A stretch of DNA of 64,000 bases from Candidatus Poseidoniaceae archaeon (lineage in GTDB: Archaea; Thermoplasmatota; Poseidoniia; Poseidoniales; Poseidoniaceae), in assembly GCA_030747785.1 (NCBI GenBank), contig JASLKC010000026.1, positions 68,967 to 132,966 of the forward strand, in the 5' to 3' direction. Positions 4,433-19,333 of this stretch are shown here, one piece after another. The notes below the pieces were generated by a model that was given only the letters and a program-made list of their open reading frames with translations, did no database searches and was not told where the DNA came from. Both the position numbers and the translations under genes were made by a program. Position 1 is the stretch's first letter, and each line of letters starts with the position of its first letter.

Positions 4433-5133
4433 TCCTCTGCCCCCGGGACCCTAAACAATCCTTCTTCTACCATCTGTGCTGCACGCTGGAGGCTTTCAGG
4501 TGTTCCGCAATCAATCCAGGTATTTTCTCCAACATTAATCGTTTCAACAGAACCCTCTTGAATATACTGACGAGTGATTTCAGATATGGAAAAGTCTGGT
4601 AGATATTGAGTTGCATCAAGGCGTTGCCAAAAAGTTTCATCAAAGAAATATATCCCTCCAATAGCAAGATTGCCTACATCGCTTTGCGGTTTTTCAATAA
4701 CATCAGAAATCTTCCCTTCCTTAAGCACTGCAATTCCGAACGAAGAAGCATCTTCAACCTCTCGAGTCAATAGCATTGCACCCGATGAAAAAGTTGCAAC
4801 AATTTCCGATAGATCCAGATTGGTAATATTATCAGAGAACCAAATTAGTAATGCACCATCTTCATTTGTTCGGCGTGCCAATTGCAGGGCATTTGCAACA
4901 CCCAAAGGCTCCTTTTCAAGAACATATTCAATTTCTTCACCAACGTGGTCTTGTATTTTGTTAATGAAGCGATTTCCAATGATTGTAATATCTTCGATTC
5001 CCGCTGAACGCACTGATGAAAGGACATAATCAATAATGGGTCGGCCACAAAGAGGCAAGAGAGTTTTGTGCGTGTACAATGTCATTGGGAAAAGACGACT
5101 ACCGTGCCCTCCAGCGACAATAATGGCCCTCAT
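4429..5133 (-). CDS. Sugar-1-phosphate nucleotidyltransferase (glucose-1-P thymidylyl/uridylyltransferase-like)
   Basis: [18 protein letters not shown]...KTLLPL signature. Start moved to the internal ATG at 5133 so the gene no longer overlaps the upstream ORF. Confidence 0.75.
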
Positions 5134-5164
5134 ATTACGACCCTCATGGTCTACACTTATTGAT

Positions 5165-5836
5165 TCACTGGGAATCTTCTTCAGGGCTTGCCGCCTTAGA
5201 GAATGCATCATCTTCTGCATTCTTGTCGAAATAGTCAGTACGCACTAAATCTCCAAGTTTCTCAACACCGTATTCGACTAAATCAGGATCATTTGCTTCT
5301 GCAGTTTCCCATCTTTTTTGAGCCATTTCAGCATATTCAATATTTGCAGCTTCGACCATTTTTTCGCCGTCACTAAGTTCGCCCTCCAACCCTTCGTATT
5401 TTTCTCCCTCAACTACAGCATCTCGACGAACAGGCGCTTGCCCCATCTTGAAATCGGTTTTACCCCAATCGGGCCCAGATGGATCATCACCTCTTGTGCG
5501 AACTGGATTTACTGTTTCAATACCCGAAGCGACCCATTCTGTTAGATGCTCGCGATATGCTACTAATCGCTCTTCTTCATCATCGATGTCTAGAATATGA
5601 GACATGTCATATCGCATGGCAAAATCTTCTTCATGAGGGATGGAGGCTTTACCGAGTATAGAAACGGCTAATCCCAGTAAACTGAACGCAATACCGAGGC
5701 CAATTAGTTCGATTTGAGGGACAAAAAGAAACCATATTACACCACAAAAAAACATGAAAATCCCCATCCATGCAAAGAAGCGCCCACGGCGCCGTTGCCA
5801 TTGAAAATCCTCTAGGTCGGAAATCGAATCATGCAT
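5165..5836 (-). CDS. Hypothetical membrane protein with acidic C-terminal domain
   Basis: Track ORF of 223 aa with two adjacent hydrophobic helices near the N-terminus. I recognise no family. Confidence 0.5.
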   Translation of the reverse strand: MHDSISDLEDFQWQRRRGRFFAWMGIFMFFCGVIWFLFVPQIELIGLGIAFSLLGLAVSILGKASIPHEEDFAMRYDMSHILDIDDEEERLVAYREHLTEWVASGIETVNPVRTRGDDPSGPDWGKTDFKMGQAPVRRDAVVEGEKYEGLEGELSDGEKMVEAANIEYAEMAQKRWETAEANDPDLVEYGVEKLGDLVRTDYFDKNAEDDAFSKAASPEEDSQ

Positions 5837-5846
5837 TTAGAGACCC

Positions 5847-6485
5847 TCAAGCCAGCATGGCCATGACATCGTCATCCATCGTTGGTATTGAATCCTGTTC
5901 CTGCATGAGTACTGAATCGCGCATATGGATATTTTGACGAGGCTCCAAAGCGAGTTTTTGTAATACTTGAGTAAGCACCTCTTGCATTCGTGCAGTTTGC
6001 GAGCCTTGGGCTACTACCATTCTTTCCAATGATTCTAGCGTTTCAATACTACGACTACTGGAAACTTCCAACGCTGCAGACTGGGCGTCTAAAGCCTCTT
6101 CCTGGCGGGCTAGTAATTCACGCGCTGCAGGACTACCGATCGCATCTCTTCTGTGAAGCTCACCTAGCGCATTACGCAAATCATGCGTTGTCTTATCCAA
6201 AGCTCGCTTCATATCATTTAATTGAACTATAGCGAGATTAAGTTCTGTTTCGAGACTGGTCGCTTTATGCTTGAGTACAGCACGAGTATTCGATTGAAAA
6301 ATCGACTCTGCAAAGAATGCTGTAAATACGCCCGCGCCCAATGCAATATTGTGATTGACACCCGCAACCACCATCATGGCCCATGTGAAGCTACCAATCA
6401 GTGCGGCTCTTGTTATTCCCATCAAGTAATACTTAGTTACCGGAGTATAAACAAACGAGGCGGGGGGGCCGTGGGCCCCCATCAT
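5847..6485 (-). CDS. Hypothetical membrane-anchored coiled-coil protein
   Basis: Track ORF of 212 aa with N-terminal hydrophobic helices followed by a long heptad-like helical region. Confidence 0.5.
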   Translation of the reverse strand: MMGAHGPPASFVYTPVTKYYLMGITRAALIGSFTWAMMVVAGVNHNIALGAGVFTAFFAESIFQSNTRAVLKHKATSLETELNLAIVQLNDMKRALDKTTHDLRNALGELHRRDAIGSPAARELLARQEEALDAQSAALEVSSSRSIETLESLERMVVAQGSQTARMQEVLTQVLQKLALEPRQNIHMRDSVLMQEQDSIPTMDDDVMAMLA

Positions 6486-15053: not shown

Positions 15054-16097
15054 ATGAGTGCAGGAGCGTCCATGGACCTCATGGGCGCGGCTTGGATGGT
15101 ACGCGAACTTGGCGAGCCAGTAAGCGCCATCCATATCCTTGCAGATGGCGGAATTATCGCTGGAGGATGGAATGGGGTTTTGAAACATTGGAGCGATGAA
15201 GGAGATCTCATTTGGGAGGTTGATTGCGATGACCGAATTGAGAGTATCCTCATCAACCAAGATAGAGTCATTGTCACTAGTGGACTCCACATTACTTGTA
15301 TCAAAGAAGGAAGTATCGAATGGTCTCATGCCTTAGAAGGCTCATCAGATATGCTTTGCATGCACAAGGGAAAAGTCATTGCCACTTCAAGTGTGTATGA
15401 TATTGAGCATGGCGATTTTATGGAGAGCGCAATTTGGAAATATAATCTCGAAGGCGAACTTATCGAAGTAGAGAGAATTGATGAACGCCCGTGGTTCATC
15501 GAATCTTCGAAGGAATTACTGTTAGCATTAGGGAGACCCCGATGTGGGATATTGCAAGGAAAAAAGCATAGCAGCCTTGCAACTGAACATCCTGTTACTT
15601 GTGGAATTAGTGGGCGTGAGCGCACACTATTGGGTCATTCTGATGGTACAATTTCTTCAAGCAAAGGAGAATTGATATCTTCGGAAGAAGATTCAATCGA
15701 CTCCATTATTTGCACTGATTACGGCTTTGTAGCATCCATAGAAGGCGGGTCGCTAATCGCTCGAAATTCTGCAGCAGAACCTCTCTGGTCAGCCCGAGGT
15801 AGCCAGGTAATTTGCCATACAGAAGGGTTTTCTTCAACACATTGGGCGGGCCGTTTTGAAACAATAGACGGAATTCTCGAGATTAGAAGCTCCAATGGCG
15901 AGATGATTGCATCGATGCGAACATCGCGACCTAGGGTCGCTCATACCAACCAAAATCGCGTCGGATTTGGTTTCGAAGATGGCAAGGTAATCATCTGGGA
16001 AAAGGAATTATTTGAACGTAGAATCGACAGTGAAGAATCAGAGGTAGATGATAGAAAATCACGACTTGCTGAACGCCTCAGATCCTTACGTTCTTGA
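15054..16097 (+). CDS. Beta-propeller repeat protein (PQQ/WD40-like)
   Basis: 347 aa with repeated short beta-strand units (GGWNGVLKHWS.EGDLIWE, similar units downstream). Confidence 0.5.
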   Translation: MSAGASMDLMGAAWMVRELGEPVSAIHILADGGIIAGGWNGVLKHWSDEGDLIWEVDCDDRIESILINQDRVIVTSGLHITCIKEGSIEWSHALEGSSDMLCMHKGKVIATSSVYDIEHGDFMESAIWKYNLEGELIEVERIDERPWFIESSKELLLALGRPRCGILQGKKHSSLATEHPVTCGISGRERTLLGHSDGTISSSKGELISSEEDSIDSIICTDYGFVASIEGGSLIARNSAAEPLWSARGSQVICHTEGFSSTHWAGRFETIDGILEIRSSNGEMIASMRTSRPRVAHTNQNRVGFGFEDGKVIIWEKELFERRIDSEESEVDDRKSRLAERLRSLRS

Positions 16098-16100
16098 GTG

Positions 16101-16119
16101 TTATTTTCGTTATTATTTT
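16101..16119 (+). terminator. Oligo-T tracts immediately after the stop codon of the beta-propeller gene
   Basis: TTATTTTCGTTATTATTTT starts 4 nt after the TGA at 16095-16097. Archaeal termination commonly uses such T-runs. Confidence 0.3.
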
Positions 16120-16140
16120 CCATTGGACCCATTGGAAATA

Positions 16141-17045
16141 TTACACGCAACCCCCCGTTTCCAGTGGAAAAAGGGGCAGATTTAGCGTAAAGTTTATGGT
16201 CCCCCGCCCCCCACGGGAAAAGTGCTGCTCCCCGGGGAGTGGTGGAGAGTCCTTCCGAGGACTTTCCGGGACCCTTGCCAACCGGTCAGCCCGAACCGGG
16301 CGCAGAGTTGGTCGCACATCCTCGAGAGGGGGAGTGCGAGGTGTGTAGGGGAGGCCGTTTCGACGGCAAGCCTGACCACACCCACAGGACATCAGGAGCT
16401 TCGGCGATCGATGTGCCGGCAAATCTTCACGGAGATGTCGGAACAGGGAGGGCCTCCGCTTCGGTGGAGGATGACCCGACACTGTGCAAAAACAGCCGGG
16501 AAGGGTGGCGAGACAGGTTTTCGGACCGACTTCGTCACATGGAACGGCTAGGTGTGAAGCTTCGGCTGAAACACCACCTCAGTCAGCAACTGACCCATTT
16601 CGGTGGGACAGCCAGGGGCCGAGGAATGGGACGGAAACGGATCAACACCTTCGGGAGTTGAAAACCGCGCCGAACCATAGGGAAGGAGACGGACTAGCAC
16701 CTTCGGGAGCTGGAAACCGCGCCGGACCACCAGGGTGTGAACTGAAATCCCCTCGGGGAAGGAAGTGAGCATTCGGGAAGCGGAAGGGAACTCTTCGGAG
16801 TGACTGAAAGCGACCCCCAGGGAAGAAAGCCTTCGGGCGGACTGAACTGGACCTAGGCTGTCGGGAAGAAGGCCTCTTTCGGGAGGTCAACGATCTAAGG
16901 AAGATTCTCTTCGGAGGATAAGAATTGGTGACGACGACTCGATGGCCGTCAGCGGAGGCTGGCAGGGGGGCGGATATCCCACCCGGATGAAACCCCCCTA
17001 CCAGTTCTCCCATCCTGCATTCACAGGTAATTCGGCGCCTGTCAA
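16141..17045 (+). ncRNA. Candidate large structured non-coding RNA of unknown class (boundaries +/- 50 nt)
   Basis: GC-rich about 0.9 kb between convergent genes. The only ORFs are mutually overlapping low-complexity artefacts. There are at least 14 TTCG tetramers on the + strand, and at least 10 sit in hairpins with complementary arms. There is also an internal duplicated module with a compensatory base-pair change, and a possible 9-bp long-range helix 16204-16212/16965-16973. Confidence 0.55.
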
Positions 17046-17102
17046 TCTCATTAATGACTGTTGAGGGTCGCGATACGTTACGCGTGCAGGTTTGACAATG
17101 TC

Positions 17103-18518
17103 TTAATCATGGCCAGTCATAGACTCGGGCCTAACCCACTCTTCGAATTCTTCAGCGGTTACATATCCCATTTCTAGAGCAGATTCACGGAGAGTAGTTC
17201 CCTTTTCATGAGCATTCTTTGCAATCTTTGCAGCCTTATCATATCCAATATGATTGTTTAGAGCTGTTACAAGCATTAGCGAATTCTCAAGATGGTTATT
17301 GATAACATCAACATTTGGCACGATTCCTTCAACACACTTGGTTCTGAACGCTTTCATGGAATCGCTCAAGATTCGAGCACTGTGCAATAAATTGTGAATC
17401 ATCATAGGTTTGTAGACATTCAATTCGAAATTACCTTGAGAGCCACCAATAGTAATGGCAGTATGGTTACCCATTACTTGGCAACATACCATTGCCAATG
17501 CTTCAGCTTGGGTTGGATTTACTTTACCAGGCATTATCGACGAACCAGGTTCATTTGCAGGAAGTGACAATTCTCCTAAGCCACAACGAGGACCTGAACC
17601 TAACCAGCGCACATCATTAGCGATTTTCATCAAACTAACAGCTAATGTGTTTAGCGCTCCAGATGCAGCCACTACTGCATCATGGGCTGCAAGTTGTGCG
17701 AATTTGTTGGGGGCTGAAACGAAAGGTAGCCCCGTTTTTTCAGCAATAGATGCGGCAACCCTATCTGCAAATTCTGGATGTGTGTTTAGTCCAGTTCCAA
17801 CTGCAGTACCTCCAAGTGCTAATTCATGGAGATCGATTAGAGCAAATTCGATTCTTCGAATATTAGCATCGAGTTGAGAGACCCAACCGCTCGCTTCTTG
17901 TCCAAGGGTAAGAGGAACCGCATCCATCAGATGGGTTCTTCCAATTTTTACGATATCGCTCCAAGCCTCAGATTTTTCTGCTAAAGAATCTCTTAGAGCC
18001 TTCAGATTTGGCAATAATTCATGCGTAAATGCTTCAGCTCCAGCGATGTGCATTGCTGTTGGAAATGTGTCATTAGATGACTGTGCTCGATTGACGTGGT
18101 CGTTAGGATGTACCGGTGATTTGGAGCCAAGTACCCCTCCAGCCATCTCGATAGCACGGTTTGCAATCACTTCATTGGAATTCATGTTCGATTGAGTGCC
18201 CGAACCAGTTTGCCAAATCCTCAAAGGAAAATGAGAATCAAGGTCACCGCTGATGACTTCTTCTGCGGCTTCAATAATTAGTTTTGCAACAGCAGAATCA
18301 AGTTCTCCCAAATCACAATTCACCCGAGCAGCAGCCTGTTTAAGGATACCAAATGCACGGATGACACCGCGAGGCATTTTATCCTCTCCAATATCGAAAT
18401 TTATCAGTGACCTAGCGGTCTGGCAACCGTAGTATCTATCGGCAGGAACCTCGAGTTCCCCCATGGTATCGGCCTCAACGCGGACATCTCCCATGATGTA
18501 ACCGGCGAAGGCGGTCAT
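17103..18518 (-). CDS. fumC: Class II fumarate hydratase
   Basis: [16 protein letters not shown] signature (the fumarase C variant rather than aspartase) and N-terminal [17 protein letters not shown]. The start is either ATG 18518 or 18494. Confidence 0.85.
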
Positions 18519-18592
18519 CCATGTCCCTTTCCCTTCCAGTCCCCTTAGGGACTGCGGAATCGTGAATACGAACCTCCCCGACCCCACAAACA

Positions 18593-19333
18593 ATGTCGGC
18601 TTACCGATTGGTCTGGTTCCAGCACCTGCACAAGGCTGCAGGAACCTATGTTATCCGAAGGGCAATGGCCAATGGTGAGACCTTTTGGCCAACCCATGAA
18701 AATGGCAATCCAATAGAAGGAGGAGAAGTAATTCCACTTTGGAAGAAGGAAGGGCAAGAACTGACTGATTTCATCAACCGTTGTGAAGCAGATGGAGTTA
18801 CTTTCGTAGCTTGTGAATGGGGAGGGGCAGATTTCTCAATTCTTGCTGACGATGAACGTGTGACTCTACTTACGTGCTTGCGCAACCCCATCAATCGCTT
18901 AATTTCAAATTACAATTATGATCATTATTGGATGTGGACAAAGGCCACAGATTATGTTGGATATTTGGCAGAGGGAAACCTACATTCAACTCCCGAATAT
19001 TACACGCGAATTTTTTCTCGAGTTAACGAAGCCACAAGGAAAGTGGATGAAGAAAATTTACGAATAGCACAAAAAAATCTCGCAGCGTTCGATCATGTGA
19101 TTATCGCTGAAGATGGAATGGATGCATTGAACACCCTAGGTTGGTCAAATGAAAGCGATACGACACACCCTACATTTGGCGACAAGAAGAGGGCGCTGAT
19201 TTTACTGGCAAAATTACGATTTAGGCGCTGGATAAATTACCGTAAAGGAGTGAAACACCTTCCCCCTGAAAGTATGGACATCGAAGGAATGAATCGGCTT
19301 GATTTGGAACTCTATTCTTCACTTAGAAAATGA
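18593..19333 (+). CDS. Sulfotransferase-family-like protein (tentative)
   Basis: 246 aa. The N-terminal [12 protein letters not shown] resembles the PAPS 5'-phosphosulfate-binding loop (h.h.PKtGGT) of Sulfotransfer_2-type enzymes. Confidence 0.35.

Follow-up and report, generated by a model that had tools for sequence, protein, structure and literature searches.

A lineage-restricted, UUCG-rich structured RNA gene predicted between convergent genes of Poseidoniaceae archaea

In the genome of Candidatus Poseidoniaceae archaeon, the gene for a propeller protein and fumC converge, and the question raised by the stretch of DNA presented above (64,000 nucleotides (nt) of contig JASLKC010000026.1, hereafter the window) is what occupies the ~1005 nt between their stop codons (16097 and 17103), where no credible gene can be found. 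With high confidence we assign to this gap (16098-17102) a novel, clade-specific gene for a structured non-coding RNA (ncRNA) of about 0.8 kb, encoded on the + strand. A sequence-only reading of the window had described the gap as GC-rich and free of credible open reading frames (ORFs), and this description is borne out. The GC content of 16141-17045 is 60% as compared to ~45% in the flanks (range 0.58-0.62 versus 0.42-0.49), which makes it the sole GC island within the window, and the + strand is rich in purine and G. Overlapping ORFs are indeed present on both strands; ten of them, rather than the eight reported earlier, are counted here at a length of at least 40 amino acids (aa), and the three of these ten that were tested have no Pfam match.

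The tetramer TTCG, of which at least 14 occurrences had been claimed for the + strand, is found 15 times on + and twice on - in 16141-17045, as compared to 3.6 ± 1.7 in dinucleotide shuffles (maximum 11 in 2000). TTCG loops closed by at least 4 contiguous pairs number 7 against 0.08 expected (shuffle maximum 2), and tetraloops other than UUCG are not enriched over such shuffles in this interval. All ten UUCG hairpins listed in the sequence-only reading are present. Seven of them are perfect, the one at 16551-16575 consists of a 3-bp inner stem and an outer stem, and those at 16643-16660 and 16696-16711 contain one A.A mismatch each. The differing stems and the kept loop had been taken to indicate selection on RNA structure. 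The covariation described below supports this argument, except that the hairpins at 16643-16660 and 16696-16711 are not independent instances, since both lie within a recent tandem duplication of a 50-nt module.

Copies of the element were recovered with nhmmer, aligned with MAFFT and folded with RNAalifold. Homologous syntenic regions had been expected in marine archaea, and many genomes and metagenomes carry the element. The 75 distinct full-length copies measure 692-970 nt with the promoter part; all of them are GC-richer than their flanks and most show a TTCG excess on +, UUCG being the dominant hairpin loop of the family (394 instances in the 75 copies). Conservation occurs in blocks along the full length and is strongest at both ends. 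Among 30 species-level sequences the consensus fold contains 134 pairs in 28 helices, with compensatory double changes in 64 pairs. Two controls were used, in which the partners were slid by 1-3 columns or the data were shuffled 500 times. The proportion of cells paired is 97.2% (37-46% with slid partners), pairs with a compensatory change number 64 (13-32 when slid) and cells with double changes 348 (20-68 when slid), and none of these values was reached in the 500 shuffles, for which the covariation score was 0.145 ± 0.004 as compared to 0.290 observed. Covariation is strong and above both controls; taken with the strand and coding tests below, it shows a conserved, non-coding fold on the + strand. 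In a helix scan over all pairs of columns, the output was overwhelmed by G.U-tolerant matching of G-rich and U-rich segments, and RNAalifold with the above controls was used instead. The MAFFT alignment of the central domain is poor across all clades, and the fold of this part was obtained from one alignable sub-clade, in which it forms a series of long arms with 55 pairs, 27 of them compensatory.

Several lines of evidence favour + as the RNA strand, as had been proposed. The consensus pairs contain 372 G.U cells but 31 A.C cells; the alignment as given folds at -147.7 kcal/mol with 134 pairs, while its reverse complement reaches -108.2 kcal/mol with 110 pairs; and both the asymmetry between UUCG and CGAA and the orientation of the predicted promoter agree with this assignment. 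In the window, the minimum free energy beats that of shuffled sequences on the + strand (z-score -2.3) and does not do so on the - strand (-0.44), while on + the homologues range from -3.9 to -5.5.

Coding DNA of high GC content, with either one protein gene or several small ORFs, could in principle account for ORFs of 109-140 aa that are open in the window and for ORFs of 107-131 aa that gene callers annotated at this place in some metagenomes. This explanation is refuted for practical purposes, as no reading frame is found to be under selection. Substitution rates by position modulo three are flat (0.198/0.167/0.201), that is, without codon periodicity, and only 85 of 764 indels are divisible by three (89% are not). 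Homologues differ in their longest run without a stop, which ranges from 56 to 235 codons; open frames are not conserved, Pfam matches are lacking and conservation tracks base pairing. The called ORFs of 107-131 aa without Pfam domains lie inside the RNA in three of the related loci compared with the window, which are labelled by L-numbers (L004-L006, locus coordinates 5301-6012), and are probably spurious entries in public protein collections.

The unit as now delimited is wider than the interval first described and runs from 16098 to ~17070, comprising promoter elements and an RNA that probably begins near 16224. Its features are collected in Table 1. Conservation extends to ~17068 (ATGACTGTTGAGGG).

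Table 1. Predicted features of the propeller-fumC gap, in window coordinates
Feature	Position	Strand	Description
AT-rich tail with T-runs	16098-16120	+	directly 3' of propeller stop; left edge of unit
Distal inverted pair resembling origin recognition box (ORB)	16116-16140		TTCCATTGGAC / CCATTGGAAAT; CAGTGGAAAC in most relatives
Proximal ORB-like palindrome	16156-16175		GTTTCCAGTGGAAAAAGGGG; reads TTCCACTGGAAACGGGGGG on - strand; ~20 nt upstream of BRE/TATA-like box
Box resembling B recognition element (BRE) and TATA box	16187-16201	+	CGTAAAGTTTATGGT; family consensus CGTAAAGTTTATTTG; invariant form CGTAAAGTTTAT
RNA	16224-17068	+	~0.80-0.85 kb; predicted 5' end ~16220-16224; 3' end between ~17030 and ~17070
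Conserved 5' domain	16224-16545	+	~320 nt; covarying hairpins, invariant single strands, two long-range helices
5' hairpin	16224-16243	+	5' domain
H3	16244-16267	+	hairpin, 5' domain
Invariant single strand	16268-16285	+	GGGACCCUUGCCAACCGG; 5' domain
Long-range helix	16282-16286:16495-16499	+	5' domain
H6	16289-16301	+	5' domain
Hairpin with conserved GAGA tetraloop	16312-16339	+	invariant loop; 5' domain
Long-range helix	16384-16387:16483-16486	+	5' domain
H12, H15, H17		+	UUCG hairpins, 5' domain
Variable central domain	16546-16855	+	nested-stem arms, A-rich internal loops, UUCG caps, purine-rich linkers
Tandem duplication of 50-nt arm module	16628-16729	+	copies 16628-16677 and 16680-16729; 84% identical
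Conserved 3' domain	16856-17027	+	~170 nt multi-helix junction, nearly invariant in places
Closing helix of 3' domain	16856-16865:16938-16947	+	long-range; six compensated pairs
H22	16871-16888	+	UUCG loop in window, GAAA in most relatives
H23/24	16905-16918	+	UUCG hairpin, 3' domain
Near-invariant 57-nt hairpin	16954-17010	+	GGAGGCUGGCAGGGGGG / CCCCCCUACCAGUUCUCC around AUCC-CACCC-GGAU and GAAA
Small terminal hairpin	17014-17027	+	3' domain

Two conserved domains flank a variable centre. In each of helices 3, 8, 9, 11, 13, 15 and 16 the majority of pairs show compensatory changes, and the 5' domain contains the invariant single strands AAAGUGUUGG and CAGGGAGGGC in addition to the one listed in Table 1. 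Helices 21 and 22 show compensatory changes at 6 pairs each, and GUCAACGAUC and GGUGACGACGAC are invariant segments of the 3' domain. The change of the H22 cap between species indicates that this particular loop has a structural role and does not make a specific contact. Nowhere is the locus better conserved than in the 57-nt hairpin; of its 16 stem pairs, 15 are constant among 30 species, and the remaining one changes with compensation (from G-C to A-U, in 8 sequences). A possible pairing of CCCUUGCCA (16272-16280) with UGGCAGGGG (16960-16968) was set aside, being indistinguishable from the local 3' hairpin, which has the compensated pair. No canonical K-turn or box C/D motif was seen by eye at the 3' junction and hairpin.

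The central domain measures 327 nt in the window and 115-361 nt across the family. It evolves through gain and loss of modules, since the window carries the tandem duplication and a single 52-nt module is exactly what separates the otherwise near-identical relatives L001 and L002. Such an array is reminiscent of CsrB/RsmZ, which is likewise a modular hairpin array whose unit number varies between close relatives by duplication. We therefore considered that the RNA might be a sponge or decoy. The repeated arms with their A-rich internal loops and the purine-rich GGAAAC linkers would then offer many binding sites to an RNA-binding protein and titrate it, in the way that CsrA is titrated by CsrB/RsmZ, and duplication of modules would tune how many sites there are. 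The variable copy number, the recent duplication, the recurrent GGAAAC(G/C)G words and an apparently regulated promoter would all fit such a role. However, in contrast to CsrB/RsmZ, the repeats are the least conserved part of the RNA and are flanked by large, non-repetitive 5' and 3' domains which are the best conserved; the recurring words are largely paired rather than exposed in loops, GGAAACGG and GAAACCG being opposite strands of the arms; L011, the shortest, retains just 115 nt of the centre; and we know of no CsrA-like partner in archaea. A sponge is consequently an unlikely, though not a negligible, function of the RNA.

The stretches GGGACCCUUGCCAACCGG, AAAGUGUUGGUCAC, CAGGGAGGGC, GUCAACGAUC and GGUGACGACGAC are unpaired and invariant across species whose propeller proteins are ~55% identical. 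Long invariant segments of this kind, together with the long-range helices and a conserved GNRA (GAGA) loop, might belong to a new large ribozyme, with the single strands and junctions forming the active site and the arms stabilising the fold. We regard this as improbable: the RNA resembles no ribozyme in Rfam, its context suggests no substrate, and the binding of a protein explains the invariance equally well.

Comparison of gene neighbourhoods argues that the structured RNA is an independent gene. The propeller-protein homologues come from sources named Poseidoniaceae, Poseidoniales or Marine Group II (MG-II). In contigs with propeller proteins 91%, 62% and 59% identical, the same order is kept, namely an HflX-like GTPase, a 286-aa protein, the propeller protein, a gene-free gap of 0.85-1.0 kb and fumC on the opposite strand. 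Species-representative genomes were scanned and provided 80 Poseidoniales loci, and profile searches with the 5' and 3' blocks found the element directly 3' of the propeller gene in all 28 loci with a propeller at least 49% identical and in none of the 52 loci with a more distant propeller. In metagenomes, a two-part pattern of the 3' hairpin matched 91 stretches. The propeller-element-fumC context is present in 88 of them, and this locus is the only one that the pattern found apart from 3 stretches of unrelated, high-GC DNA that match by chance.

In at least 14 genomes the site at the propeller/fumC junction is empty (L042, L048-L050, L053, L054, L056, L062, L069, L072, L073, L083, L086 and L088). 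Here fumC is still convergent, with just 1-2 nt between its stop codon and that of the propeller gene (TGA-A-TCA), which indicates that the whole kilobase is a discrete unit gained or lost together. The AT-rich tail, the palindromes, the TATA-like box, the RNA and a short tail are accordingly present or absent as a whole. Since the 1-2-nt state is common to many diverse lineages, the simplest history would be that the unit was gained once, by the ancestor of a single Poseidoniaceae clade. Origin from a mobile element was considered and rejected: searches of viral contigs (with three patterns) and of annotated phage and plasmid records yielded nothing similar, and neither an integrase nor flanking repeats were seen.

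The empty sites also bear on the possibility that the element acts in cis within the mRNA of a neighbour, whether as a long, structured 3' untranslated region (UTR) of the propeller gene, as its terminator, or as an antisense to the convergent fumC. The position between convergent genes and the GC-rich terminal hairpin ~90 nt from the fumC stop would suit this explanation, which we nevertheless consider very improbable. Both neighbours function without the RNA in the many genomes where their stops are 1-2 nt apart, T-runs separate the propeller stop from the element, an invariant TATA-like box of its own stands at a fixed distance from the fold, and an 800-nt fold with 134 conserved pairs far exceeds any known terminator or UTR element.

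Other features of these loci were observed in passing. The gap of 1-2 nt between stops in RNA-less genomes leaves practically no space for terminators. In other Poseidoniaceae the junction after the propeller gene holds unrelated genes (L060, L067 and L080, ~4607-5566; L046; L064), which encode a 318-aa protein without a Pfam match, an SPFH/Band 7 protein, an MptE-like protein and the large subunit of DNA primase; gene content after the propeller gene turns over among Poseidoniaceae. Metagenome contigs often end inside the element, mostly in or near the central domain (L090, L103, L108, L119, L123, L124, L161, L163 and others), which suggests that length heterogeneity at the strain level breaks assemblies there. 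One record titled 'Verrucomicrobiales bacterium' (L069, NZEQ01000005.1) has the Poseidoniales propeller-fumC arrangement and is probably mis-binned. Another, labelled Thalassarchaeaceae (MGIIb; L033, CAUZVL010000069.1), has an element that differs little from the one in L004, whose locus is of the Poseidoniaceae type; the contig may be mis-binned, or else its label conceals a wider distribution. The mechanical ORF of fumC in the window (17103-18593, -) is 496 aa long with a TTG start and abuts the start of a divergent 246-aa gene at 18593. As homologues are called at 453-481 aa, the true start of fumC probably lies further downstream than this TTG.

The left part of the unit contains the signals expected of a gene with its own transcription. 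The AT-rich tail is kept as an AT-rich stretch in relatives, is absent in the empty-site genomes and is probably the terminator of the propeller gene. Further downstream, TTTAT within the BRE/TATA-like box is present in all 75 distinct copies, and in 73 of 74 copies it precedes the initial G of the 5' hairpin by 31 nt despite a variable intervening sequence. This arrangement is that of archaeal BRE/TATA promoters. As the geometry is fixed and the box agrees with the archaeal consensus, we infer a candidate promoter from which transcription would start at ~16220-16224, about 27 nt past the box, at the first base of the 5' hairpin. RAAANTTTATW is not matched anywhere in the window, since G is the last base of the local box. 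As reference promoters, crude upstream regions and an alignment of the intergenic region between fumC and the 246-aa gene were uninformative, and with no tRNA gene in the window or in 60 related loci a reference promoter of a stable RNA was not available; tmRNA features were likewise not found. We also set aside a pairing between GCGGAGGC and the C-rich stretch that follows the TATA box, as changes fall on one side and produce mismatches, and the C-rich stretch precedes the predicted start.

Two palindromic sites precede the box. The distal pair agrees with the right half of GTTCCAGTGGAAAC, the core of euryarchaeal ORBs, and the proximal palindrome matches this core at 12 of 12 positions (TTCCAGTGGAAA) followed by a G-run; the published euryarchaeal consensus is GTTCCAGTGGAAAC-AAA----GGGGG (PMC1868953), and Pyrococcus mini-ORBs have invariant TTCC and GAA (PMC1904270). 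Four of the five matches to CCNNTGGAAAN in the 64 kb fall in 16116-16171, and the only perfect TTCCNNTGGAA lies at the proximal site. With up to one mismatch, TTCCNNTGGAA occurs 47 times in the whole window as compared to 23.6 ± 5.7 expected (reached in 0 of 100 shuffles), an excess which may reflect codon usage. Across the family the proximal site reads TTTCC-NN-TGGAAAA. Its centre is variable with uncompensated changes (e.g. G to C in L032), which argues for a DNA site rather than an RNA helix. The palindromes are therefore a candidate operator of the RNA promoter, possibly bound by an Orc1/Cdc6-type or another winged-helix protein, and would control transcription from just upstream of it.

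The same sites raise the possibility that the unit acts at the DNA level, as a replication origin, or as what is left of an origin captured from an extrachromosomal element, whose ORB-like sites would bind Orc1/Cdc6 beside a short AT-rich stretch, the G-rich transcript serving as an R-loop or primer or for transcriptional activation, like ColE1 RNA II and the transcripts of the mitochondrial light-strand promoter. The presence of two ORB-like sites within 60 bp, the clustering of CCNNTGGAAAN matches, the purine- and G-rich RNA strand and the gain or loss of sites and RNA as one unit could be taken in its favour. However, ORBs of archaeal origins are accompanied by a long AT-rich unwinding element and an adjacent orc1/cdc6 gene, while here the sole AT-rich stretch is ~22 bp (16098-16120), no orc1/cdc6 is found within ±4 kb at any locus, and a crude P-loop screen of the window gave none either, its P-loop ORFs being PEPCK and, 44 kb away, an AAA_16 protein. 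There are only two sites, they are restricted to one clade, and they occupy the position of a transcription-factor operator. The unit is absent from most Poseidoniales and so cannot be the main origin, viral or plasmid relatives are not found, and G.U-tolerant covariation points to selection on the fold of a free RNA. Isolated mini-ORBs scattered in genomes are, moreover, not bound by Cdc6 in vivo in Pyrococcus (PMC1904270). An origin function is thus even harder to credit than a ribozyme.

We compared the locus with the 4227 covariance models of Rfam 15, which include OLE, GOLLD, ROOL, HEARO, raiA, IMES, RNase P, signal recognition particle (SRP) RNA, rRNAs, introns and ribozymes. No family reaches its gathering threshold anywhere in the window. 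At E<=10 with permissive filters, 16000-17200 gives five sub-threshold matches only, and at E<=1 there is no match in seven divergent homologous loci, in line with the sequence-only reading, which could not match the region to RNase P, SRP, rRNA, a group I/II intron or a riboswitch. The best of the sub-threshold matches, to whalefall-1 RNA (RF01762), scores 23.9 bits at 16222-16272 against a threshold of 37, is absent from all seven homologues and is a chance resemblance to two adjacent hairpins.

A diverged or expanded housekeeping RNA (RNase P RNA, SRP RNA, an rRNA fragment or a group I/II intron) was an obvious candidate, since its size, GC enrichment, UUCG loops and conserved core with variable periphery resemble such RNAs. 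In archaeal RNase P RNA, conserved regions I and V (CR-I, GNAANNUC..., and CR-V, ACANAANNNGGCUUA) form helix P4, and archaeal SRP RNA has Alu and S domains with helix 6/8 motifs. Neither the RNase P (RF00373) nor the SRP RNA (RF01857) model matches the 1.2-kb region or the seven homologues, and CR-I/CR-V-type motifs are not found by inspection. The element is absent from most Poseidoniales, and MG-II has separate, canonical RNase P RNA of 292-306 nt and SRP RNA of 305-315 nt (PMC5069720). This explanation is largely refuted, with very little probability left to it. Full-text literature searches retrieved no description of the present RNA. Judged against Rfam 15 and the searchable literature, the predicted transcript belongs to no described RNA family.

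What the RNA does can be addressed more tentatively. Both neighbours do without it and their convergent junction appears neutral, from which we infer that the RNA would act in trans. The invariant single strands and the invariant stem of the 3' hairpin exceed the needs of pairing and suggest sequence-specific recognition or dense tertiary packing. Of the roles considered, the likeliest, though at somewhat less than an even chance by our estimate, is that of a stable, trans-acting architectural molecule, serving as the core or scaffold of a ribonucleoprotein (RNP) or forming an RNA assembly. In such a model the conserved 5' and 3' domains would be the functional core that binds a conserved partner, either a protein or copies of the RNA itself, while the central arms would be structural expansion segments which tolerate gain and loss, a layout comparable to OLE, ROOL and GOLLD RNAs or to the peripheral elements of RNase P RNA. 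Some observations speak against this architectural role. The RNA is absent from the propeller-fumC site in most Poseidoniales and is not universally required; the gene neighbourhood indicates no partner protein, as the flanking genes also occur in RNA-less genomes; UUCG loops rarely make tertiary or intermolecular contacts, so that an RNA-only assembly is not particularly favoured; and the scaffold model follows only weakly, being drawn purely by analogy. More speculatively, and with a lower probability, the element might represent the first 'ornate large' ncRNA class in Archaea, gained as one gene, with a core that does what no known family does. Its core could then serve in higher-order RNA or RNP assembly, in catalysis, or in linking an Orc1/Cdc6-type protein to RNA output.

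To our knowledge, large and intricate ncRNAs such as OLE, GOLLD, ROOL and a few others are rare and all bacterial, and no such RNA is on record from Archaea apart from the universal ones. Each of the large ornate bacterial RNAs has revealed unexpected biology. Marine Group II archaea are uncultured, make up a large share of surface-ocean plankton and are the most abundant planktonic euryarchaea. The locus offers a natural form of genetics, as filled and empty sites differ by exactly the RNA gene and the length of the centre varies three-fold, and the nearly invariant core is suited to structure determination and to pull-down of partners. The ORB-like candidate operator would, in addition, be a possible link between an Orc1/Cdc6-type DNA-binding protein and the control of an RNA gene.

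Among known RNAs, one comparison is with Tan1 (Thalassoarchaea ncRNA 1), an abundant 229-nt ncRNA of MGIIb with unknown function (PMC5069720). Both are orphan structured ncRNAs of MG-II with a complex predicted fold, Tan1 having its own transcription start. However, the present RNA is ~800 nt long and belongs to an MGIIa clade, and in metagenomes the pattern of its 3' hairpin led to the propeller-fumC locus alone, chance matches aside. With RNase P RNA it shares a multi-domain organisation, long-range helices, a conserved core with variable peripheral hairpins and GC-richness relative to the genome, but it is ~2.7 times longer, is confined to one clade and is without a CR-I to CR-V or P4 signature. 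A further likeness is to OLE, ROOL and GOLLD, whose function, like that of the present RNA, cannot be deduced from sequence; they too are lineage-restricted ncRNAs, and the 0.6-0.8 kb size, the dozens of covarying helices and the many invariant junction nucleotides are common to both (cryo-EM of these bacterial RNAs in PMC12286853). In contrast to these three, the present RNA does not match their Rfam models, is dominated by UUCG loops and has an archaeal host. OLE lies in an operon with partner proteins, which the present RNA does not, and unlike the prophage-borne ROOL and GOLLD it resides at a fixed chromosomal locus with its own predicted archaeal promoter.

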